Origin: Dehalococcoidia bacterium
Lineage (GTDB): Bacteria; Chloroflexota; Dehalococcoidia; Lucifugimonadales; JAAXIE01
Length of the DNA: 64,000 bases
Direction: 5' to 3'
NCBI GenBank assembly: GCA_965197805.1
Contig: OZ240229.1
Coordinates: 3,589,039 to 3,653,038, forward strand
The notes under the pieces are model-generated. The model had not been told where the DNA came from, made no database searches, and was given only the letters and a program-made list of their open reading frames with translations. The number at the start of each line of letters is the position of its first letter. The first letter of the stretch is position 1. The position numbers and the translations under genes were made by a program. This document shows positions 15,230 through 58,231 of the stretch, piece by piece.

Positions 15230-16468
15230 CTACGAGGAGGCCGCTATCTCGCCGATGGCTGCCGTGGCCTGGGCCACCTCCTCCTCGGTGTTGAAGAAGG
15301 AGAAGGACAGGCGCACCGCAGGCGGGTAGCTTACCTGACGACAGACGATACCGTGTTCGTCCCACATCCGGTCGACGACCCCCGGCGGTTCTGCCCCTTC
15401 AACGGTGAAGGTGACCAGCCCGGAGCGTCCGGGGCCTTCCGAAGGTGAAGTGACCTGTACTCCTGGGATGTCGCCCAGTTGTCGCTTGGAAGCGTCGGAT
15501 AGGCTGAGAATCCGCTCTTCTATTTCCACCGTACCTGCGTCTAGGTTGAACTGCACCGCATCCACGAATCCAGCCCACAGAGGATGACTGGGATTGGTGG
15601 TCGGGAACTTCTCGATGGAGTCCAACTCCGCCTCGTAGTTCCCCAAGTGGTCGTGGAATGATGTGGACCGGCTGGAGACCCGTACAGGCCTGAGTTGCGG
15701 CACCAGATCACGGCGGACGAACAGCCCGCCTGTTCCCGACGGCCCCAGAAGCCACTTCTGGCCGGAGAAAGAGTAGAAATCCGGGTCCAGTTGCCGCATG
15801 TCCAAGGCGATGTGTCCCGCCCCTTGTGCCGAGTCCACCAACATCAGGATGCCGCGATCTTTGGTCAACTTACGTATGCCTTCCGCAGGCATCCGCAGAC
15901 CGGTGGAATATTGTATGTGGGAGAAGAAGACCATGCGCGTCTTGGGCGTTATCGCTGCTTCAATCTGGCGCAGTATGGAATCGTGCTCCTCGGCGGGGGC
16001 GAACTGTAGCACTTTCACCTGGACGCCGAACCGGTGGTTCAGCATCAGCGACGGCACCATCACTGACATGTGTTCCAGTGAACAGACGATGATCTCATCG
16101 CCCTCATTCCAGTCCAACCCGTTGAGGACGATGTTCAGCCCCTCGGTGGTGCTGGAAGTCAGGACGATCTCGTCAGGAGTGGCGTTGATGAGCCTAGCTG
16201 CCTGCTCCTTGGCTTTCACCATGTGCAGGCGGCCTGCGGCGAATACCTCGCGAGTGGTCGGACCGTCGAAGCTCTCGTACTCCATGCATTCCATGACGGC
16301 CTCTACGACGCCTCTGGGCGATGGCCCTTGCCAGCCGGTGTTCAGGTAGGTCAGCCTTTGGCACACCGGTATCTGGGCGCGTATCGCTTCTACGTCCACG
16401 AGAGTCACCTCCTCCAAGTGCCACCCGGCATTGCCGGGGTTTGGGAACGCTCCACAAGCTGGCGCCAT
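15230..16468 (-). CDS. Aminotransferase class V-fold PLP enzyme (cysteine desulfurase / selenocysteine lyase-like)
   Basis: FYSFSGQKWLLGPSGTGGLFV PLP-lysine region and overall class V collinearity. The exact start is uncertain. Confidence 0.8.
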   Translation of the reverse strand: MAPACGAFPNPGNAGWHLEEVTLVDVEAIRAQIPVCQRLTYLNTGWQGPSPRGVVEAVMECMEYESFDGPTTREVFAAGRLHMVKAKEQAARLINATPDEIVLTSSTTEGLNIVLNGLDWNEGDEIIVCSLEHMSVMVPSLMLNHRFGVQVKVLQFAPAEEHDSILRQIEAAITPKTRMVFFSHIQYSTGLRMPAEGIRKLTKDRGILMLVDSAQGAGHIALDMRQLDPDFYSFSGQKWLLGPSGTGGLFVRRDLVPQLRPVRVSSRSTSFHDHLGNYEAELDSIEKFPTTNPSHPLWAGFVDAVQFNLDAGTVEIEERILSLSDASKRQLGDIPGVQVTSPSEGPGRSGLVTFTVEGAEPPGVVDRMWDEHGIVCRQVSYPPAVRLSFSFFNTEEEVAQATAAIGEIAASS

Positions 16469-26902: not shown

Positions 26903-27019
26903 TGGCGCTAAGGTGTGAGGGAGGGTGAGCCTCTACTACACGCTATTGGGCGGTCCGCGATCCGATTGACACCCTTCCGGCATCGCCATAGAATGGCCCC
27001 GCTTTAACAACTTAATAAG

Positions 27020-27185
27020 CAGTCCCGGGTACCCACAGGGTTTAAGAGGGAAGGCGGTGTGAGACCGCCGCGGTAGCGCCACTGTAATTGGGGAGCGGGC
27101 CGGCAACAATCCACTGTTCCATTAGGGATGGGAAGGGGCCGGGCCCGTAGTGATCCATGAGCCAGGAGACCTGCCCGGGAAAGCG
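27020..27185 (+). promoter_or_regulatory. Cobalamin (B12) riboswitch
   Basis: AAGAGGGAAGGCGGTGTGAGACCGCC...GCCACTGT...B12 box GAGCCAGGAGACCTGCC. The P1 helix pairs CCCGGGT (27024) with CCCGGG (27174). Lies upstream of a BtuF-like operon. Confidence 0.85.
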
Positions 27186-27255
27186 GAGCCCTACTCTGCG
27201 CGTGACGGAGTCGGCTCTCGGAACGCCTGCGGCGGCTTCAGCCAATGCCTTTCCG

Positions 27256-27356: not shown

Positions 27357-28418
27357 ATGCGACTCATCGGACCACTGGTCGGTCTTACCCTGATGGTCAT
27401 CCTGATGGCAGGATGCGGCGGCGCCTCCACCCCTGCCCCCACTGTGGCCGCAACACCCACCGCGCCGACGCCAAGCTCCATCCCTGCTCGTACTGCCGCT
27501 CCCACGGCCACCAGCACTCCCATCACCGCCCGGCCGATGCCCACCAGCACTCCGGCGCCGACACCGACGCCGGGCACGCCCACGCCTGTGCCCCCGACAC
27601 CCGCGCCTACCCCCAGTCTCTTCCCTGTCACCATCATGGATAGCAATGGCGACCAGATTACCTTCGACGCGCCTCCCGAACGCATCATCGCCTTTGACTC
27701 GGCCGCTGTCGAAATCCTCTACGCCTTAGGCGAGGAACACCGCATCGTGGGTACCCATACCTTCGTCGATTACCCACCGGAGACGGCCGACATACCCCGG
27801 GTGGGTGACGCCTTCAACATGGACTTCGAGCAGCTCGTGGCCCAGGAACCAGACTTGGTCTACGTCTTCTTCGACCGTTTTGTGCCCGAGTTGCAAGACC
27901 TTGGCCTCAAGGTGCTCTACGTCGAGTCGCTCAACCACAACCTGGAAGAGGCCATGGAGCACTTCCGCCTCTGGGGCAGCATCATAGGGAACCCTGGTGC
28001 AGCTGACGACGAGATATCCGATATACAGGCGCGCATCCAAGCCATTGAGGACTCCCTAGCCGACGTGGGACAGGGACCCAGGGTCTACCACCACGGGTTC
28101 GACTTCTGGACGCCGGGCGGAGACACCCTGATGGCCCGCATCTATGAGTTGTTGAAGGCCGAGATGGTGACGACGGACATCGAGGGCTACGCCCAGATAT
28201 CCCCTGAAGAGCTGGTGCTCCGCGACCCCGAGGTCATCGTCACCAACGAGTTCAACCAACAACAGGTGCTGGACTCCGACGCCCTAGCCGGAACCACGGC
28301 AGTCCAGCAGGGCGCCGTGGTTCTGACCCAGCGCGGCTCCCTGGACGTAGCGGGGACCAGGCTGGTGGATGCCATCGAGGAGCTGGCCGAGCTTCTCTAC
28401 CCCGAAAGGTTCTCTTAA
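27357..28418 (+). CDS. BtuF/FecB-type periplasmic-binding lipoprotein (cobalamin/siderophore ABC transporter)
   Basis: Lipobox LMAGCGG, a Pro/Thr-rich linker, then a class III SBP fold pattern (IIAFDSAAVEILYALG). Its position behind the B12 riboswitch supports the call. Confidence 0.85.
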   Translation: MRLIGPLVGLTLMVILMAGCGGASTPAPTVAATPTAPTPSSIPARTAAPTATSTPITARPMPTSTPAPTPTPGTPTPVPPTPAPTPSLFPVTIMDSNGDQITFDAPPERIIAFDSAAVEILYALGEEHRIVGTHTFVDYPPETADIPRVGDAFNMDFEQLVAQEPDLVYVFFDRFVPELQDLGLKVLYVESLNHNLEEAMEHFRLWGSIIGNPGAADDEISDIQARIQAIEDSLADVGQGPRVYHHGFDFWTPGGDTLMARIYELLKAEMVTTDIEGYAQISPEELVLRDPEVIVTNEFNQQQVLDSDALAGTTAVQQGAVVLTQRGSLDVAGTRLVDAIEELAELLYPERFS

Positions 28419-28421
28419 GAA

Positions 28422-29519
28422 ATGAATTTGGGCTTTCTTGTAGGAAGGTCGACCGCCAAGAGCGCCTCCCCAGCCATGGCTGTGCCTCTTGGCTTAGCCT
28501 ACCCATGGCTGCGCCTAGCCGCCGGGTTGGTGGTGCTGGTGGTCATTGGAATACTGGCCATAGCCATCGGCTCGGTCTACATCCCGCCTTGGACCGTGGC
28601 GCGAATCCTGCTCGATGCGGCGCCAGTGATGGACATATCGCAGACTTGGCCCGATGCCTGGGGTACCATCGTGTGGCAACTACGCTTTCCCCGCATCATC
28701 CTGGCCGGGATGGTGGGTGCGGCGCTTGCCGTATCCGGGGCCACCTACCAAGGGCTGTTCCGTAACCCCTTGGCCGACCCCTTCTTTCTGGGCGTGGCCG
28801 CCGGGGCCGCCCTCGGGGCCTCTCTGGTGCTCCTCACCAGCGTACCCGTCTATTTCGGAGGCTTCAGCCTGCTGCCCCTGGCGGCCTTCGCCGGGGCCAT
28901 TGCCACTGTTTCCGTCACGTACGGCGTCGTTCGCCGCTCAGGCGGTCTCCCCCTCACCTCCCTGATTCTGGCCGGCGTAGCCATGTCGTCCTTGGTTACC
29001 GCGGTCACCAGTCTTCTCATTATTCGCAGCGACCCGGACGTGAAGCCGCTGCTGGGCTGGCTCATGGGCGGTTTCATCGGCAGCCAATGGGACGACATCT
29101 ACACCATCTTGCCCTATGTCGTGCCCGGCACCCTGGTGATGATGGCCTACTCCCGCATCCTGAACACCTTCCAACTCACGGAGGAAGAAGCGCGCCAGTT
29201 GGGGGTAAACGTCGAGCGGACCAAACTGCTGCTCGTCGCCCTAGCCTCTCTAACCGCCGCGGCTGCTGTATCGGTTTCGGGCATAATCGGGTTCGTCGGG
29301 ATCATCGCCCCCCATGCCGTGAGGATGGTGTGGGGCAACGACCATCGCTTCCTGCTGCCCATGTGCCTGCTGGTGGGAGCCGGTTTCCTCATACTGGCCG
29401 ACCTGACGGCCCGCACCATCGCCAGCCCCAGCGAGTTGCCCGTGGGCATCGTCACCGCCTTCTGTGGAGCGCCTTTCTTCCTGTACTTACTGCGTCGCAG
29501 CAGGAGCTTCAGCTTTTGA
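28422..29519 (+). CDS. FecCD/BtuC-family ABC transporter permease
   Basis: Multi-pass hydrophobic protein with the FecCD signature ...GIIGFVGIIAPH.... Confidence 0.9.
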   Translation: MNLGFLVGRSTAKSASPAMAVPLGLAYPWLRLAAGLVVLVVIGILAIAIGSVYIPPWTVARILLDAAPVMDISQTWPDAWGTIVWQLRFPRIILAGMVGAALAVSGATYQGLFRNPLADPFFLGVAAGAALGASLVLLTSVPVYFGGFSLLPLAAFAGAIATVSVTYGVVRRSGGLPLTSLILAGVAMSSLVTAVTSLLIIRSDPDVKPLLGWLMGGFIGSQWDDIYTILPYVVPGTLVMMAYSRILNTFQLTEEEARQLGVNVERTKLLLVALASLTAAAAVSVSGIIGFVGIIAPHAVRMVWGNDHRFLLPMCLLVGAGFLILADLTARTIASPSELPVGIVTAFCGAPFFLYLLRRSRSFSF

Positions 29520-30352
29520 ACACCGCCCCCACTCTCCAGCTGGAAGACATCTGGTTCTCGTATGGACGCTCTCATGTCCTCAATGGAATCGACCTGCAGG
29601 TCGCTCCCGGTGAGATGGTAGGGCTGGTTGGTCCCAACGGCACGGGCAAGAGCACCCTCCTGAACATCGCCAGCCGTACTTTAAACCCGCAGCGAGGTCG
29701 TGTGCTGCTGGGCGGTGTCGATGTGCAACAGCTTTCCCCCAGAAAACGGGCATCGAAAGTGTCCATGGTTCCCCAGTCGCCAGCCGTCCCCACTGGCTTC
29801 AACTGCATGGAGGTCGTGCTGATGGGGCGCAACCCCCATCTGGGGCTTCTCCAGTGGGAGCGGCCTCGCGACCTGGAGATCGTCCGTCACGCCATGGAGT
29901 TAACCGGCACCGACGAGTTTGCATCCCGGCCCATCTCGTCCCTCTCAGGCGGCGAGAGGCAACGCGTCTTCATCGCCCGGGCCTTGTCCCAAGGAGCGCC
30001 CCTGCTGCTGCTGGACGAGCCCACTGCTCACCTCGACATCGGCTACCAGCCAGCCGTCCTCGACCTCATCCAGAAAGTGCGGACTGAGATGGGCGTTAGC
30101 GTTCTCGCTGCGATGCACGACATCTCCTTGGCTGCCCAGTACTGCCAGCGCATAGCCGTCCTGCACGGAGGCTCCGTCTACGCGCTAGGCACCCCCGAAG
30201 AAGTGGTCACCGCCGACGTGGTCTCCCAAGCCTTCGGGACCGAAGTCGCCATCAGCCGTCACCCGGTCCACGGCACTCCCGTAGTGCTCCCCATCGGCAA
30301 GAACGCCCGCACCATCGACTGCCCTCTGGCCTCAACCAGCGACCTCTGCTAG
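29516..30352 (+). CDS. ABC transporter ATP-binding protein (BtuD/FepC-like)
   Basis: Walker A GPNGTGKST, signature LSGGERQRV, Walker B LLLLDEP. The TTG 29516 start overlaps the permease stop. The N-terminal extension of the ORF track (from 29087) overlaps the permease and is discounted. Confidence 0.9.
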   Translation: MNTAPTLQLEDIWFSYGRSHVLNGIDLQVAPGEMVGLVGPNGTGKSTLLNIASRTLNPQRGRVLLGGVDVQQLSPRKRASKVSMVPQSPAVPTGFNCMEVVLMGRNPHLGLLQWERPRDLEIVRHAMELTGTDEFASRPISSLSGGERQRVFIARALSQGAPLLLLDEPTAHLDIGYQPAVLDLIQKVRTEMGVSVLAAMHDISLAAQYCQRIAVLHGGSVYALGTPEEVVTADVVSQAFGTEVAISRHPVHGTPVVLPIGKNARTIDCPLASTSDLC

Positions 30353-32536: not shown

Positions 32537-34837
32537 ATGACCACCTATGCCGGCGCACCCATGAAGCGGTTCGAGGATCCCCAGCTTGTCCAAGGCAAGG
32601 GCAGCTTTGTCGACGACAAAGTGCTGCCGGGCATGCTTCATGCCGCTGTGCTGCGCAGCCCCCATGCATATGCGCTGATACGCTCCATCGACACCTCCAA
32701 GGCGGAAGCGCTGCCGGGAGTCGTACAGGTGGTCACATCCGCGGACATTCCAGGGCTGGAGACCATACCGCCACGGCAGACGGAGCGGCTTGATGACATG
32801 AAGTCGCCCCGCCATCCCGTCCTTGCGGAAGGGAAGGTATGTTACGTCGGTCAGGCGGTGGCAGCGGTGCTTGCCGAGAGCCGATATGTGGCACGGGACG
32901 CGTTGGAACTGATACAAGTCGATTATGAGCCGCTGCGCCCGGTGATGGACCCCTACGAGGCAGTCTCTCCCGATTCCAAGCCCATCCACGAGGACATCGG
33001 CAGCAACGTTGCCGTCCGCATGCAGGTGGGCCGTGGGGATGTGGATGTGGCGTTGGCCGAATCTGACAAAGTAATCCGCGAGCGGTTCCACGTTCCGCGT
33101 TTGGCCCCCAATCCCATGGAGGGCCGTGCCCTCATCGCCGACTACCAGCCCGGCAACATGGTGCTGGAATTGTGGACTTCCACCCAGGTGCCTCACAAGG
33201 CCAAGAGCTTCCTCGGCCCCCTGCTCAAGCGTCCTGACATACACCTTCGCGTGCTAGCCCCCGATGTGGGCGGTGGATTCGGTCAAAAGGTGGAGCTATG
33301 GCCTGAAGAGATCCTTTTCTCCCACTTGGCCATTCAGATCGAGCGTCCCATCAAGTGGATAGAAGACCGTTGGGAGAACGTACTGGCCTACCAAGCCCGA
33401 GGCTACCACGGCGAGGTGGAGGCAGGCGTCAAGAGCGACGGCACCATTCTGGGTATGCGCTTCCGGATGATCGCGGACTTAGGAGGCTACTACCTGACCT
33501 CGACTGCCGGTCCTGCCTATAACACCATCCGTCGCGTCAACGGCCCCTACGCCATCCCGAACATGGATGTTTCCGTGGACTGCGTCATCACCAACCGGCC
33601 ACCCACAGGCCCCTACCGGGGTGCCGGAGCACCCGAGGGTGCCTTCATGATGGAGCGGACCCTAGACCTGATCGCACAAGAATTGGACATGGACCCAGCC
33701 GAAGTACGACGGCAAAACTTCGTGGCAGACGATGCCTTCCCCTACACCACCGGCACCGGGCTTATCTACGACTCAGGCCAGTTCGGCTTGGCTCTGGACA
33801 GGGCACTGGAGATGGGCGAGTACTCACGCTACCGCGAGGCCCAGAGGAACCGCAAGCCGGGGGACCCACTAATCGGCATCGGTGTCTCCACTGTGGTGAA
33901 GGCATCCGGGGGCATCGGCGAAATGCGCGATAGCGCTGCCGTGGTGCAGGTGGACGCGTCTGGAACGGTCCGGGTGCATACGGAGGTCTCCCCTCACGGT
34001 CAAGGCACCGAGACCACTTTCTCTCAGATCGTGGCCGACGAGTTGGGTCTCGCGCCGCAGCAGATACAAATCCTCCACGGCAACAGCGACATACCCGAAA
34101 AAGGACTCGGCACCTTCGCCAGTCGGGGCCTCTCGGTGGGCGGCTCAGCCATGCTCCTCGGGATCCGCGACGCGAAACAGAAGCTGGCAGCCATAGCTGC
34201 CCACATACTGGAGTGCGCACCCGAAGACATCGTCTTCGAGGATGAAAAGGTGATTAACGGGAAGGACCCGGAGCAGGTTATGTCCTTCCAGGAAGTCGCC
34301 TCTGAAGCCCACCGTCCCGACAGGCTTCCGCCGGGCATGGAGCCTGGGCTGGAGTTCAAGAGTTCCTTCTCCATGCCGGAGAACCCCTTCGGCTTTGGGG
34401 CCCACGTGGCCGTGATACAGGTCGACCCCGACACTGGGGCCATCTCCTTCCTCAATTACTCGGCCGTCCACGATACAGGTCGGGTAATCAACCCCAAGAT
34501 AATGGAGGGCCAGCTGCACGGCGGATTGGCCCAAGGTTTGGGTCAAGGGCTCATGGAAGGCATGATTTACGACGAGAACGGTCAGCCCCTGACCAGTAAC
34601 TTCTTGGACTACTCCATGCCCACCGCTGAGGATATGCCTCCGCTGCACATGGACAGCATCGAGACCCTCTCGCCCGTGAACCCCCTAGGGGTCAAGGGAG
34701 GGGGCGAGCTTCCCACGGTAGCCAGCCCCGTAGCCGTGGCCAACGCCTTGGTCGACGCCCTCTCCCGGACATCGGTGCAACACATGGACGCGCCCGTGAC
34801 ACCGGAGAAGGTGTGGCGCGCCTTCCAAGACGAGTAG
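32537..34837 (+). CDS. Xanthine dehydrogenase-family molybdopterin-binding subunit (form II CoxL/aldehyde oxidase-like)
   Basis: 766 aa with an XDH large-subunit layout. The active-site loop reads PYRGAGAPE (AYRGAGR-type, not the AYXCSFR of true CODH). Confidence 0.9.
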   Translation: MTTYAGAPMKRFEDPQLVQGKGSFVDDKVLPGMLHAAVLRSPHAYALIRSIDTSKAEALPGVVQVVTSADIPGLETIPPRQTERLDDMKSPRHPVLAEGKVCYVGQAVAAVLAESRYVARDALELIQVDYEPLRPVMDPYEAVSPDSKPIHEDIGSNVAVRMQVGRGDVDVALAESDKVIRERFHVPRLAPNPMEGRALIADYQPGNMVLELWTSTQVPHKAKSFLGPLLKRPDIHLRVLAPDVGGGFGQKVELWPEEILFSHLAIQIERPIKWIEDRWENVLAYQARGYHGEVEAGVKSDGTILGMRFRMIADLGGYYLTSTAGPAYNTIRRVNGPYAIPNMDVSVDCVITNRPPTGPYRGAGAPEGAFMMERTLDLIAQELDMDPAEVRRQNFVADDAFPYTTGTGLIYDSGQFGLALDRALEMGEYSRYREAQRNRKPGDPLIGIGVSTVVKASGGIGEMRDSAAVVQVDASGTVRVHTEVSPHGQGTETTFSQIVADELGLAPQQIQILHGNSDIPEKGLGTFASRGLSVGGSAMLLGIRDAKQKLAAIAAHILECAPEDIVFEDEKVINGKDPEQVMSFQEVASEAHRPDRLPPGMEPGLEFKSSFSMPENPFGFGAHVAVIQVDPDTGAISFLNYSAVHDTGRVINPKIMEGQLHGGLAQGLGQGLMEGMIYDENGQPLTSNFLDYSMPTAEDMPPLHMDSIETLSPVNPLGVKGGGELPTVASPVAVANALVDALSRTSVQHMDAPVTPEKVWRAFQDE

Positions 34838-35327: not shown

Positions 35328-35403
35328 GTCCCAGTAGCTCAGGGGATAGAGCAGCTGCCTTCTAAGCAGCGGGTCGCGGGTTCGAATCCTGCCTGGGACG
35401 CCA
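35328..35403 (+). tRNA. tRNA-Arg (anticodon TCT), CCA encoded
   Basis: Hand-folded cloverleaf. Acceptor GTCCCAG/CTGGGAC, D arm GCTC..GAGC, anticodon stem GCTGC/GCAGC with loop CTTCTAA, T arm GCGGG-TTCGAAT-CCTGC, discriminator G, then CCA. Total 76 nt. Confidence 0.95.
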
Positions 35404-39908: not shown

Positions 39909-40826
39909 ATGGCTATAACAATCTTACAAGAGCAGCCGTGGTACAGTGCCGAAAGGCTCTGGCGTGCGTTAGCAGTGGTCCGGCGATGGCCTCTGATCCC
40001 CTTGCTATTGATCTTGGTACTGGTGGTAATGCCGGCAGTCCTTGCTGATGTTCTTGCTCCCCATGATCCTGAAATTGGAAAGCTGAGCGAACGACTTACT
40101 CCTCCCTTCTGGGCAGGAGATCAGGAGGTGGCAGAAGAGGGGGAGGGCATCAGATACCTTCTGGGCACTGATCGTTCTGGAAGAGACATCTTCAGTCGGA
40201 TGATGCACGGGGCTAGAGTATCACTGATGGTTTCTCTACTGGCCATATCCGCCGGGGGCATCGTTGGTACCACACTGGGCGTGCTGGCCGGTTACTACGG
40301 CGGAATAACGGACCATTTCATAATGCGCATAGTAGACGCCTTTCTCGCTTTCCCTTTCATACTACTGGCGTTGGTGCTGGTCTCGATATTTGGCAGTAGT
40401 TTCTCCACCGTGGTAGTTACGATAGGGATTTTGCTGTGGGCCCGGTTTGCCCGACTGGCTCGGGGCGAGGCGCTTACCGTAAAGCCTAGGGACTTTGTTA
40501 CCCGGGCCAAAGCCTCTGGGTGCTCCGACTTCCGCATAATGACACGACACATCTTTCCCAACATTGTGAACCCGATCCTGGTGGTCGCGACCCTTGAGGT
40601 GGGGCATGTGATATTGTTGGAATCCACACTTAGTTTCCTCGGAGCAGGCCTACCGATCCCCACTCCGGCTTGGGGCCTGATGGTGGCGGAGGGTCGAGAC
40701 CTAATTGTGGCTAACTGGTGGGTCTCTTTCTTTCCCGGCATTGCCATCCTGCTCACGGTGTTATCGATGAATTTGGCGGGAGACTGGCTAAGAGATAGGC
40801 TGGACCCGAAGCTGAGACAGTTGTGA
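39909..40826 (+). CDS. ABC transporter permease (DppC/OppC-like)
   Basis: LGTDRSGRDIFSRMMHGARVSL is the conserved DppC motif. Confidence 0.9.
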   Translation: MAITILQEQPWYSAERLWRALAVVRRWPLIPLLLILVLVVMPAVLADVLAPHDPEIGKLSERLTPPFWAGDQEVAEEGEGIRYLLGTDRSGRDIFSRMMHGARVSLMVSLLAISAGGIVGTTLGVLAGYYGGITDHFIMRIVDAFLAFPFILLALVLVSIFGSSFSTVVVTIGILLWARFARLARGEALTVKPRDFVTRAKASGCSDFRIMTRHIFPNIVNPILVVATLEVGHVILLESTLSFLGAGLPIPTPAWGLMVAEGRDLIVANWWVSFFPGIAILLTVLSMNLAGDWLRDRLDPKLRQL

Positions 40827-41815
40827 GCATGGACGATTTCGATCGCGATCGCCCCATACTTGAGGTTGACAACCTCTGCACGTATTTTTTCAACCGACGT
40901 GGTGTGGTTAAAGCTGTCGACGGAGTCAAGTTTCACTTGAGGCAGGGTGAAACTCTGGGTATCGTGGGCGAATCCGGCTGTGGCAAGACCATGACAGCCC
41001 TATCGCTGTTGCGCCTTGTACCCCGGCCGGCAGCACGCATCGTGGACGGGGCGGTGCGGCTATATGGAGAGGACCTGCTATCCCTTAGCAACGACGAGAT
41101 GCGGAGGGTTCGAGGGCGCAAGATTGCGATGATCCTCCAAGACCCCCAAACGTCGCTCAACCCGGTGTTTAATATCAGTAACCAGCTAATAGAAGCCTTC
41201 GGGATGCGGTTCAAGGGTGATAAGCAGTCCATGATCCAGCGGGCCATTGAGGCCTTGCGAAATGTAAGGGTGGCGGCGCCTGAAAGTCGCTTGAGAGATT
41301 TCCCTCACCAGATGAGCGGCGGGATGAAACAGCGGGTATTTGGCGCCATGGCAGTAGCCCAAGAGCCGGGGGTGGTAATAGCCGATGAACCTACCACCGC
41401 GCTGGACGTGACCATTCAACTGCAGTACCTCCGTCTGTTGAAGGAGATTCAGGCGCAAACAGGGCTCGCCATCATATTCATCACCCACGACTTCGGGATT
41501 GTGGCGCGCATGTGCGACCGGGTAGCTGTGATGTATGCCGGCCGCATTGTGGAGAATGGGCCTGTCAGAGATGTATTTAACCACCCGTCGCATCCTTACA
41601 CACAGGCTTTGATGGCATCGGTGCCCGACATGGAGGAGCCCCCGGAACGCCTCTACTCTATCGAGGGCCAGCCACCTGTACTGATGGATCTTCCCGATGG
41701 CTGCCGCTTTGCTCCACGATGCCCTCACGCAACGGACCGATGTAACGCCGAGTACCCCCCTAGCTTCACAGTCAGGCCAGAACACACAGCAGATTGCTGG
41801 AAAATGGAAGAATAG
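40823..41815 (+). CDS. ABC transporter ATP-binding protein (DppD/OppD-like)
   Basis: Walker A GESGCGKT, signature MSGGMKQRV, Walker B VIADEPTT, and the C-terminal oligopeptide domain CRFAPRCP. Confidence 0.9.
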   Translation: MSMDDFDRDRPILEVDNLCTYFFNRRGVVKAVDGVKFHLRQGETLGIVGESGCGKTMTALSLLRLVPRPAARIVDGAVRLYGEDLLSLSNDEMRRVRGRKIAMILQDPQTSLNPVFNISNQLIEAFGMRFKGDKQSMIQRAIEALRNVRVAAPESRLRDFPHQMSGGMKQRVFGAMAVAQEPGVVIADEPTTALDVTIQLQYLRLLKEIQAQTGLAIIFITHDFGIVARMCDRVAVMYAGRIVENGPVRDVFNHPSHPYTQALMASVPDMEEPPERLYSIEGQPPVLMDLPDGCRFAPRCPHATDRCNAEYPPSFTVRPEHTADCWKMEE

Positions 41816-42783
41816 TGGAACATGCCCTGATCGAAGTCAAAAATCTGAAGAAATACTTCCCAGTCACCCGGGGCTTGATCCTCATGAAAACCGTCGGCTA
41901 TGTTCAGGCCGTTGATGGGATCAGCTTCACAATAGGTGATAAAGAAACGTTGGCGTTGGTTGGTGAGTCCGGCTGTGGCAAAACCACTACTGCCAAGTTG
42001 ATGCTTCGTCTCGAACAACCCACTTCAGGACAGATTTATCTCCAAGGTCAGGACATTCAGGAGTTGACCGGGCAGGAACTGAAGGACCTCCGTTCCGATG
42101 TTCAACCCGTGTTTCAGGACCCGTGGTCTTCACTGAGCCCGCGAATGAAAGTAAAAGATATTGTAGCGGAGCCTCTGGTTGTAAACCGGCAGATGACTCG
42201 CCAAGAAGTAAAGGACCGAGTAGATGAGGTGCTGGTACAAGTGGGCCTCAACCCAGCACAGGGGGAGCTCTATCCACACGAGTTCAGCGGCGGCCAGCGG
42301 CAACGAATTGCAGTGGCCAGTGCGCTTGCATCGTATCCCAAGCTAATGATTCTCGACGAGCCCGTGTCAGCGCTGGACGTTTCGATACGAGCCCAGGTGA
42401 TGAATCTGCTCAAGGACCTTCAGGGACAATACGAGGTCAGCTATATGCTGGTGGCCCACAATCTGGCTACGGTAAGGTACATGGCCCATAGGACAGCCGT
42501 AATGTACCTAGGTCAGTTTGTAGAATATTCTTCCACCACAGATCTCTTTGAAAACCCTCTGCACCCATATACCAAGGCGCTGTTTTCGGCAGCGCTTCCT
42601 TCCCATCCCGATGTTAATCGGGAAGAAATCGTCCTATCTGGTGAGGTCCCTTCTCCCATCAATCCGCCGTCAGGCTGCCGGTTTCATCCACGATGTCCAA
42701 TGGCGATGGAAAGATGTAGTGTGGACATTCCCGAACCCAAAGAGGTGGCGACAGGCCACACCGTTAGCTGCCACCTATATTAG
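41794..42783 (+). CDS. ABC transporter ATP-binding protein (DppF/OppF-like)
   Basis: GESGCGKTT, FSGGQRQRI, LILDEPVSALD, and CRFHPRCP. Confidence 0.9.
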   Translation: MLENGRIVEHALIEVKNLKKYFPVTRGLILMKTVGYVQAVDGISFTIGDKETLALVGESGCGKTTTAKLMLRLEQPTSGQIYLQGQDIQELTGQELKDLRSDVQPVFQDPWSSLSPRMKVKDIVAEPLVVNRQMTRQEVKDRVDEVLVQVGLNPAQGELYPHEFSGGQRQRIAVASALASYPKLMILDEPVSALDVSIRAQVMNLLKDLQGQYEVSYMLVAHNLATVRYMAHRTAVMYLGQFVEYSSTTDLFENPLHPYTKALFSAALPSHPDVNREEIVLSGEVPSPINPPSGCRFHPRCPMAMERCSVDIPEPKEVATGHTVSCHLY

Positions 42784-42846
42784 AGGCCTTTTGTTCCAGA
42801 TATGTCCTTGGAAGTTATCAAGTATCACGGCAAAGGAGGCAACAGT

Positions 42847-43446
42847 ATGCTATGGCTAAGGGGTGTTAGCGACGACCAAGCCGAAGGCTATGTCAAAGAA
42901 GTGTTCGACCGGTACCGGGAAACGCGGGGTGCAGTGCCTGCATTGTCTCGTGTGCTCGCACTTAGACCCGATGTGCTACGAGGACGGGAAACTCTACGTA
43001 ATGCGGTATGCGATGAAGCGACCACTCTGGGAAGGCGCCGCGAGGAGCTTCTGAATTTCTATGGAGCGACGCTAGGCGTCTGTACCGGTTGAGTGATGAA
43101 TCACGGAGAGTTGCTCCGTAAGGCTTCGGATACAGACAAGAAAGCAGTTGCAGCAATTGGTGCCGACTTCAGGACGTCCGAATTAGATCACCAGGACAAG
43201 ACCATGCTGGCTTTCGCTGAGAAACTTACCTTTGACCACACTCATGTGACCAAGCAAGACTTAGAAGGTCTGCGAGAGGTTGGCTTCAGCGACGAGAATA
43301 TCCTGGAAATCATAGCCTCTGTAGCCTTCAGGAATTTCAGTAACCGGCTGAATGTCGGCTTGGGCTTAGATGACCCTGACAACCTGCCGGAGTTAGACCC
43401 AGATCTGAACGAGATGTTGGTGACGAGGGAAGCTGTAAGCGCCTAA
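42847..43446 (+). CDS. AhpD/carboxymuconolactone decarboxylase (CMD)-family peroxidase-related protein with in-frame TGA at 43090-43092 (candidate selenocysteine, motif C-T-G-U)
   Basis: ORFs 42802..43092 and 43093..43446 are in the same frame, separated only by TGA. Together they give about 199 aa, the normal length for this family. The TGA sits at the second position of the CxxC redox motif (GVCTG[TGA]VMNH). AAGGAGG lies 7 nt before ATG 42847. Confidence 0.7.
43103..43119 (+). promoter_or_regulatory. SECIS-like hairpin downstream of the TGA
   Basis: ACGGAG-AGTTG-CTCCGT starts after a 10-nt gap from the TGA (first stem base 11 nt downstream of its last base). Confidence 0.45.
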
Positions 43447-56942: not shown

Positions 56943-57659
56943 TTACCCGCCGGCCGCCACCTGCTTCGCCCCCTCCGCCTGCTGCACAACACCCCAGATG
57001 TCTTGAGGCAACTCCGCGCCGCGCTCTTCACCCAACACCCCCGCCCGGTCCCGCGCTTCGGCAGCGTCGATTGCTGCAAAGTCCGACACCAGCAAGCCGA
57101 GGCCGTCCACCATGCGGACGCGGTAGTTGAAATAGGCCGATATGTGAGCGATATCCAAAATGTCCCGGTCCGTCCAGCCCACATCCCGCAGCTTCTGGAC
57201 ATCATCCTGAGTCATGGCCGATGGCGTGAGGGTCAGCTTTTCGGCCCATTCCAGCATGGCCCGTTCCCCCTCGGTGAGGTCGGCCTTCCTCCAGTCGTTC
57301 TGAATATACTCGGCGGTGAGATCGTCGCCGCCAACCCTACGCAGGGCCCCTGCGTGGGACACCGCTCAATAGCGGCAGTTGGCAGTCAGTGAGGTGACCG
57401 TAGCGATCATCTCCCGCTGTGCAGGGGTCAAGCCAGATGGCCCGCGCATGATGTCCATCATGAACTCGCGGGCGTGGAGCATCGCCTGTGGCTGTAGGCT
57501 GGAAAGCTCGGGAGGTGTCACGGGACGCTCCATCCCCGGCGCTGCCTCCCCGTAGGTCTCGCCCATGCGCTCATTGAGTTCCGCCATCTTGTCGTAGGCG
57601 GCCTTCAACTCGCCCTCGGCCCCGCTCTCCCTGATTACATGAATCCACGGCATAGCCAC
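56943..57659 (-). CDS. AhpD/CMD-family protein, second paralog with in-frame TGA (57368-57366) at the redox motif (C-R-Y-U); candidate selenoprotein
   Basis: ORFs 57659..57366 and 57362..56943 are in the same frame. The junction reads TSLTANCRY[TGA]AVSHAGAL, so the TGA takes the second Cys position of CxxC...H. The C-terminal half (MLEWAEKLTL...DVGWTDRDILDIAHISAYFNY) is the normal continuation of CMD proteins. Confidence 0.7.
57335..57358 (-). promoter_or_regulatory. SECIS-like hairpin downstream of the TGA
   Basis: The minus-strand RNA CCCACGCAGG-GGC-CCUGCGU(A)GGG forms a 10-bp stem with a bulged A and a G-rich loop. It starts 8 nt after the TGA. Confidence 0.45.
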
Positions 57660-57682: not shown

Positions 57683-58231
57683 CTAAGCCTTCAGCCTGCG
57701 GGCCGTATCCAGCACCGTAGCCATTGCTTGGTCAAGAAGCTCTCCCAACGAGGCGTCGATGATCGCGCCGTCGGGACTGATGGCTTGGTCCACATGGGGC
57801 AGCAGGACTCGTGGCGTCGTTACAACCCATCCGCCCTCCGACTCGATGCTGGAGACAAGGTGCTCTGCCATTCGTATCGATCCCGATCGCCCTGGTGTGC
57901 ACCCCATCACGTAGAACACCTGCCCCGGCATCACGTTGGGCGCACGACAGGCCCACTCCACCACGTTCTTCATCACCGCAGGAATGGTGCTGTTGTACTC
58001 CGGTGCCGTCAGCACCACGGCATCTGCTCCGGCTATGGCATCGCGCAACTCCCTGACCGAGGCCGGAAACTCGCCTCCCACTTCCAAGGCCGGGCTGTAC
58101 AGGGGCACCGGAGTAAGGTCGAACTCCTCCGCCTCCACGCCCTGCTTTCTCACGGCATCCATGGCCAGCTTCAGCAGCTTAAGGTTCCACGAGCCCTGAC
58201 GCAGGCTCCCGGCAATTCCTACTACTCCCAA
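57683..58231 (-). CDS. NADPH-dependent FMN reductase family protein
   Basis: GIAGSLRQGSWNLKLL...VVLTAPEYNSTIPAVMKNVVEW is the FMN_red pattern. It lies upstream of, and co-oriented with, the CMD paralog. Confidence 0.85.
   Translation of the reverse strand: MGVVGIAGSLRQGSWNLKLLKLAMDAVRKQGVEAEEFDLTPVPLYSPALEVGGEFPASVRELRDAIAGADAVVLTAPEYNSTIPAVMKNVVEWACRAPNVMPGQVFYVMGCTPGRSGSIRMAEHLVSSIESEGGWVVTTPRVLLPHVDQAISPDGAIIDASLGELLDQAMATVLDTARRLKA

Follow-up and report, generated by a model that had tools for sequence, protein, structure and literature searches.

The segment 42847..43446 of the 64-kb stretch of DNA analysed here (the window) is very probably one gene, hereafter the first gene, which encodes a 199-aa AhpD-like thiol/selenol oxidoreductase of the TIGR01926 family and in which the in-frame UGA at 43090-43092 is decoded as Sec by means of a bacterial SECIS element. 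We infer that Sec is actually inserted and that the genome has the Sec machinery; the substrate of the first protein and its reductant in vivo are likewise inferred. The features on which this reading is built, together with those of a second AhpD-like gene in the window, are collected in Table 1.

Gene layout and start codon

The ORFs 42802..43092 and 43093..43446 lie in a common frame, and the TGA is the sole interruption between them. The earlier note had described two ORFs in one frame which were parted only by this TGA, with a read-through product of about 199 aa, and had expected the gene to be mis-annotated as two short genes. The layout was confirmed, the product is exactly 199 aa when read from ATG 42847, and public gene calls do cut the gene into an 81-aa and a 116-aa product. 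ATG 42847 is likely the start codon, because it is preceded at close distance by a Shine-Dalgarno-like AGGAGG, the N-termini of homologues read MLWLR or MLRLR, and the public upstream product is 81 aa long.

Table 1. Positions of the two predicted AhpD-like selenoprotein genes, their catalytic codons, candidate SECIS elements and adjoining genes in the window
Feature	Position	Strand	Remarks
Two oligopeptide/dipeptide-type ABC transporter ATPase genes	40823..42783	+	ORFs directly upstream of first gene, 63-nt gap
Shine-Dalgarno-like AGGAGG	42834..42839	+	Read from sequence; 7 nt upstream of ATG 42847
AhpD-like (TIGR01926) selenoprotein gene, predicted (first gene)	42847..43446	+	199 aa and TAA stop, TGA read through
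Glu67 codon GAG	43045..43047	+	12 residues before Cys79; position of AhpD proton-relay Glu
Cys79 codon TGT	43081..43083	+	First residue of C-x-x-U; column invariant in alignments
In-frame TGA, predicted Sec82 codon	43090..43092	+	Aligned with second Cys of CxxC
His86 codon CAC	43102..43104	+	H of CxxUxxxH, invariant column; last two bases open the hairpin
Candidate bacterial SECIS of first gene	43103..43119	+	Stem ACGGAG/CUCCGU of 6 bp, loop AGUUG, starts 11 nt after TGA
Second AhpD-like (TIGR01926) selenoprotein candidate	56943..57653	-	236 aa; start alternatively GTG 57659
Candidate SECIS of second gene	57339..57355	-	Stem ACGCAGG/CCUGCGU of 7 bp, loop GGC, spacing 17 nt, dG -9.6 kcal/mol
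In-frame TGA, predicted Sec96	57366..57368	-	Sole interruption of second gene; same catalytic position
NADPH-dependent FMN reductase gene	57683..58231	-	Pfam FMN_red 106.7 bits; ends 24-30 nt upstream of second gene

Family membership and active site residues

For HMM scoring of the first protein, a Cys was put in at position 82. The protein matched the NCBIfam family TIGR01926 ("peroxidase-related enzyme") with 111 bits against a cutoff of 81.8 (E = 5e-32), and the match covered profile positions 2-173 of 178. Its score against Pfam CMD (PF02627) was 21.9 bits, which is below the cutoff of 23 and consistent with similarity at the superfamily level only. The AhpD/CMD-like family proposed in the earlier note was right as to the superfamily and is narrowed here to TIGR01926. 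NF053654 (YciW-related) and NF041238 (AhpD_rel_CFYUT) belong to the same superfamily and follow the same CxxU logic, but membership of the first protein in either was rejected, since its scores of 47.4 bits and 21.3 bits were far under the respective cutoffs of 310 and 175.

The best solved relative is DR1765 of D. radiodurans (6K40, E = 5e-20), which aligns with residues 8-174 of the first protein, and the alignment is unbroken across the TGA. Four structural genomics entries with the description "uncharacterized peroxidase-related protein" (2OYO, 3C1L, 2PRR and 2PFX) also align as one domain, over about residues 8-174. Since 6K40 and the other solved relatives align continuously, the TGA is located centrally within one domain, and the read-through protein is predicted to be a single AhpD-like helical domain over its whole length. 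DR1765 and the four structural genomics entries share the all-helical AhpD-like domain of about 190 aa and the Glu...CxxCxxxH site with the first protein; they have Cys at the second position of the motif, whereas Sec is predicted for the first protein.

The motif of the first gene is GVCTG*VMNHG, i.e., C79-T-G-U82-V-M-N-H86, and the TGA column corresponds to the second Cys of the solved AhpD-like proteins, as in RCVYCAVSHG. The spacing between the proton-relay Glu and the first Cys of AhpD is known from Glu118/Cys130 in M. tuberculosis and Glu36/Cys48 in PA0269 (PMC3141380). With E67, C79, U82 and H86 all at AhpD spacing, the first protein would have the full AhpD-type set of active-site residues, U replacing the second Cys.

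The TGA codon in relatives of the first gene

The aligned codon was surveyed in the best 80 loci of the family, one genome being taken per species. It was TGA in 26/80 and TGC or TGT in 54/80, and no other codon was found (0/80). The position given to the TGA by the earlier note, the second Cys of CxxC-x3-H, is thus occupied by Cys or TGA in all 80 of these loci, and the homologues continue past this position. The TGA forms came from Dehalococcoidia, Betaproteobacteria/Burkholderiales, Acidimicrobiia, Caldilineaceae and Krumholzibacteriota MAGs, and metagenome contigs contributed 10 further TGA forms. Of the relatives with a name, those nearest to the first gene belong to Burkholderiales/Betaproteobacteria MAGs (64-66% identity) and Dehalococcoidia MAGs (62%). 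Few close relatives came from the metagenome scan, in which only the loci L086 and L087 had more than 50% identity. Relatives with as little as about 30% identity, and from different phyla, still have the TGA. The restriction of the column to TGA or Cys and the retention of the TGA go far beyond chance.

When 5.8 billion proteins were searched, two Cys forms of full length were retrieved (P0001 and P0002), which are 55-58% identical to the first protein and carry G-S-C-I/T-G-C-V-I-P-H-G. They are the nearest full-length Cys forms to the sub-clade of the window gene, which has the motif G-x-C-T/Y-G-U-V/T-M/L-N-H-G and consists mostly of recent long-read MAGs. The same search returned about 20 fragments of about 116 aa which start with M-N-H-G, i.e., at the same cut site. 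In the loci L001, L002 and L004, an 80-81-aa ORF has its TGA end 3 nt upstream of the MNHG fragments. The exact 116-aa C-terminal product was present on at least 22 contigs.

Read-through or recoding without Sec, by a near-cognate Trp or Cys at the UGA or by reassignment of UGA (codes 4 and 25), is very unlikely as an explanation of these data. Among the database homologues, P0032 has W and P0108 has G in the TGA column, as this reading would allow; most simply, these residues are the source's own translation of TGA by code 4 or 25. In the window, however, TGA is the terminator of 10/35 of the longest stop-to-stop ORFs, so that it is an ordinary stop there and not reassigned. Decoding as Sec is also favoured by the SECIS-like hairpin, which is conserved with compensatory changes (see below), and by the fact that the family is already catalogued as a selenoprotein family.

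Yet less probable is a split enzyme, in which translation stops at the TGA and starts again at GTG 43093 or ATG 43096 (termination-reinitiation), and the 81-aa and 116-117-aa products form a non-covalent pair. The GTG and ATG directly after the TGA make re-initiation formally possible, the sequence TGA-GTG-ATG is kept in the closest relatives of the first gene, and gene callers yield exactly the 81-aa and 116-aa products. However, the protein would be broken within the CxxCxxxH active-site helix of a fold that has one domain only, and the catalytic second Cys would be lost altogether. Moreover, the more distant TGA forms lack a start codon behind the TGA (e.g., TGA-CTC-ACG and TGA-GTA-TTG), and a simple gene split does not predict a strict Cys-or-TGA column in the best 80 loci. 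We thus prefer a single gene with Sec encoded by the TGA.

Selection on this gene was followed within its own population in eight independent contigs, which came from five JGI samples and one ENA sample (at least six samples). The contigs differed from the window gene by 5-19 nt per 600, and the TGA was present in 8/8. Their codon changes, 5-18 synonymous versus 0-1 non-synonymous, were spread across both halves of the gene. In the comparison with the 91%-identical orthologue of locus L001, there were 26 synonymous and 8 non-synonymous codon differences upstream of the TGA, and 35 and 9, respectively, downstream of it. These patterns indicate strong purifying selection on both halves of the first gene, within the population as well as between species.

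A gene that is intact except for an in-frame stop resembles the outcome of a recent nonsense mutation, in this case of a Cys-form AhpD-like gene. A pseudogene is nevertheless scarcely credible, given the purifying selection on both halves, the conservation of the TGA at low identity and in several phyla, and the paralogue in the window with the same TGA feature. A sequencing or assembly error that hides a true TGT or TGC, for which the low coverage of the source long-read contig (labelled 12x) might speak, is practically negligible, because the TGA recurs in the eight independent JGI/ENA contigs despite their other nucleotide differences. Eight contigs with the TGA and with changes that are nearly all synonymous rule out both of these explanations, and also settle in favour of TGA the earlier question of a TGT or TGC at this site.

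Candidate SECIS of the first gene

A 6-bp hairpin had been pointed out downstream of the TGA, at the site of bacterial SECIS elements. The hairpin is present at that place and barely agrees with the published consensus. The bSECIS consensus, as quoted in PMC13188914, has an apical loop of 3-9 nt and an upper stem of 4-16 bp. One of the first two loop nucleotides is a G, mostly with a G or U after it, the distance from UGA to loop is 16-37 nt, and the MFE is <= -7.5 kcal/mol (PMC13188914). In the loop of the first-gene hairpin, a G is at position 2 and is followed by U. The UGA-to-loop spacing is 16 nt and the dG is -7.5 kcal/mol (-8.3 kcal/mol with one flanking base on each side), and the hairpin thus falls within the consensus, at its limit for both spacing and energy.

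Taken alone, this hairpin is weak evidence and not beyond chance: 6.3% of all UGA trinucleotides in the window precede a hairpin which passes the same SECIS criteria. An Rfam scan of the window gave no match to the candidate SECIS and found only a cobalamin riboswitch and a tRNA. Folding energy was rejected as a SECIS test because it does not discriminate. The value for the hairpin region was unremarkable against shuffles (z = 0.32), and GC-richer Cys forms fold equally well or better. Some Cys homologues form identical basal pairs in this region because H-G...V/L-R is conserved in the protein.

The hairpin was then compared among relatives. In the expected range, 25/25 distinct TGA forms of the genome scan had a stem of 6 bp or more, versus 25/55 Cys forms. 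In the group to which the window gene belongs, the stem is paired at every position in 11/11 distinct relatives, and the variation consists of G-U variants and of one G:C pair that is swapped to C:G in the paralogue and L022. In the Acidimicrobiia-type subfamily, which has the hairpin CGGCGC-GGUCU-GCGCCG, one pair is GC, CG, AU or GU at synonymous Arg third positions, and the covariation score of this subfamily was reached by 0/500 shuffles. The L004-type subgroup has a more distal hairpin, GCUUUC-CGUGCY-GAAAGC, as its conserved element, and this hairpin persists despite a Gly-to-Ser change by which the proximal stem is lost. The stem counts, together with the pairing and covariation in the relatives, show that SECIS-like hairpins with a G(G/U) loop are conserved among the TGA forms of the family, the covariation giving modest support.

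Second AhpD-like gene

The product of the second AhpD-like gene of the window scored 138 bits against TIGR01926. Its motif is A-N-C93-R-Y-U96-A-V-S-H100, and Glu81 is located 12 residues before Cys93. The hairpins of the two genes are in register, each opening at the second base of the His codon. The closest database homologues of the second gene are split N-/C-terminal fragments, along with a few full-length Cys forms. That the two paralogues both carry TGA at the same catalytic position is the best sign within the window that the organism decodes Sec. A scan of the window for in-frame TGA with nearby Cys gave no convincing candidate beyond the two AhpD-like genes, and the other in-frame-TGA hits were rejected as selenoprotein genes because they were in non-coding frames.

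The FMN reductase gene upstream is probably co-transcribed with the second selenoprotein gene candidate. This arrangement is a single instance, as it was seen in none of the other fetched loci.

Proposed mechanism

In the mechanism that we propose for the first gene, the hairpin within the coding sequence would bring SelB and its Sec-tRNA(Sec) to the UGA for the insertion of Sec82. Sec82 would then complete the AhpD proton-relay site with Cys79, His86 and Glu67 in the folded domain. The selenolate may attack a peroxide or an oxidised partner protein, and Cys79 would resolve the intermediate as a selenenylsulfide. An external reductant would regenerate the active site, which would thus cycle between the selenol/thiol and the selenenylsulfide states. 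We take the second Cys of M. tuberculosis AhpD (Cys133), whose position is that of Sec here, to be the nucleophile that attacks AhpC; this would fit the placement of Sec at the second Cys position.

DR1765 is the closest homologue that has been characterised; according to the summary in PMC8945050, D. radiodurans without this protein is sensitised to H2O2, and the cysteines of CxxC matter for complementation. These genetic data are the sole functional data for a close homologue of the first protein, and they bear on it indirectly.

It is conceivable, though quite unlikely, that both AhpD-like proteins belong to Sec-dominated sub-clades with a dedicated electron supply that has so far gone undescribed. 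If so, a flavin reductase and a Sec-AhpD would form a peroxide- or disulfide-reducing couple, replacing the lipoamide/AhpC system known for AhpD. The couple is suggested because the second gene is apparently co-transcribed with the NADPH-dependent FMN reductase. The first gene follows a peptide ABC transporter operon.

Comparison with known AhpD-like proteins

AhpD-like proteins with CxxU were reported as a new selenoprotein family from the Sargasso Sea, with 27 sequences assigned to COG2128 (Zhang, Fomenko and Gladyshev 2005, PMC1088965). In the GOS data, the AhpD-like family ranked fourth in abundance among the prokaryotic selenoprotein families, with 299 Sec sequences and 902 Cys homologues (Zhang and Gladyshev 2008, PMC2398784). 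The table of a 2026 review has the entry "AhpD-like protein, TIGR01926, CxxU" (PMC13188914), and the AhpD-like selenoprotein family serves as the worked example in BSepDB. The statement in the earlier note that AhpD-like families appear in selenoproteome surveys was borne out by all three publications.

With the family "AhpD-like 1" (COG2128/TIGR01926), the first gene shares the HMM family, a CxxU motif with Sec for the second Cys, a SECIS-like hairpin downstream within the CDS, and many Cys homologues. It does not differ from this family in kind, and its hairpin is short and weak by the standard of the bSECIS consensus. Judged at the level of sequence, the first gene agrees with the known AhpD-like CxxU selenoprotein family in every criterion.

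The residues E118, C130, C133 and H137 of M. tuberculosis AhpD correspond to E67, C79, U82 and H86 of the first protein, with the same spacing. The two proteins nevertheless have only distant sequence similarity, and the topology of the chain differs (PMC3141380). M. tuberculosis AhpD is the reductant of AhpC, whereas the first gene has no adjacent ahpC. In the case of DR1765, a role in H2O2 tolerance has genetic evidence, whereas the first protein is known here from its sequence.

What is new is one more member of a family that has been catalogued since 2005, and the knowledge of selenoproteins and of AhpD chemistry is unchanged. The value of the finding is in annotation. Both genes are stored publicly as fragment pairs (81 + 116 aa and about 97 + 139 aa), and gene calling has split dozens of relatives likewise. 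If the fragments were merged as AhpD-like proteins with Sec, the selenoproteome counts for this lineage would be corrected, the 64-kb window alone having at least two selenoprotein candidates.

Sec machinery and gene neighbourhood

ARAGORN found no tRNA-Sec in the window or in locus L166; the only tRNA in the window is tRNA-Arg(TCT). SelA, SelB and SelD gave no Pfam match in 30 of the larger ORFs of the window and no true hit in six-frame tblastn searches with the E. coli queries against the window and all fetched loci (518 kb). The 10 kb upstream of the window had no Sec machinery either. The window is part of an 849-kb contig (ERZ25072076:ctg245456), and proteins identical to those of the window are also encoded on contigs of 1.8 Mb and 3.68 Mb.

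The neighbours of the first gene are the ABC transporter ATPase genes on the upstream side and a gene for a BNR/Sortilin-type protein on the downstream side, ahpC being absent from both positions. A promoter/terminator scan of the ATPase genes found neither element between the genes or after them. ABC_tran/oligo_HPY neighbours also flank the relative in locus L001, and the neighbours of other relatives differ again. Many of the surrounding genes encode luciferase-like monooxygenases, Rieske/ring-hydroxylating oxygenases and short-chain dehydrogenases, which is at most a hint of lifestyle.

A second AhpD-like gene with an in-frame TGA

The window contains a second gene of the TIGR01926 AhpD-like family, which also carries an in-frame TGA at the CxxU position, and its SECIS-like hairpin matches that of the first gene in register. 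The gene lies directly downstream of a gene for an NADPH-dependent FMN reductase. The coordinates of these and the other features of the window are listed in the table.

Features of the window
Feature	Position	Strand	Remarks
Class-V aminotransferase	15230-16468	-	Pfam family
Cobalamin riboswitch	27010-27192	+	Rfam RF00174, 117.5 bits
Peripla_BP_2/FecCD/ABC_tran transporter operon (ORFs)	27357-30352	+	Downstream of the riboswitch
Molybdopterin-dependent hydroxylase large subunit	32537-34837	+	Xanthine dehydrogenase/CO dehydrogenase type
tRNA-Arg(TCT)	35328-35403	+	Sole tRNA of the 64-kb window
Second AhpD-like gene	56943-57659	-	TIGR01926
In-frame TGA of second gene	57366-57368	-	Context ANCRY-U-AVSH
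SECIS-like hairpin of second gene	57339-57355	-
NADPH-dependent FMN reductase	57683-58231	-

In the protein database search, the nearest homologues of the second gene were fragmented too. Two full-length homologues had neither Sec nor Cys in the aligned column: P0032 (JGI) has a Trp (HCRFWTVAH) and P0108 (NCBI) a Gly (GCAYGVRHH). At this position the source pipeline probably translated a TGA, using genetic code 4 or 25; the two entries would therefore probably represent hidden selenoprotein genes. Another database protein, P0015 (ENA, 251 aa), is a chimera of a Rieske domain and pieces of an AhpD-like protein in the wrong order (…AVCDEATTPGRRREEGDHTHVT…), and is probably the product of a misassembled or frameshifted contig.

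Position of the SECIS-like hairpin in the family

One subgroup of the TGA forms (loci L004, L009-L015, L087, L167 and L168) has the motif C-Y/F-G-U-T-M/V-N-H-G/S-Q-A-F-R-A-E-S. The conserved hairpin of this subgroup is more distal (GCUUUC-CGUGCY-GAAAGC, with a spacing of 24 nt), and where Gly is replaced by Ser the proximal stem is gone. The position of the SECIS has therefore moved within the AhpD-like family.

Other genes in the window

No tRNA-Sec was found within the 64-kb window. The Pfam family of the class-V aminotransferase includes cysteine desulfurases and selenocysteine lyases among its members. The transporter operon presumably encodes an uptake system for B12 or a corrinoid.
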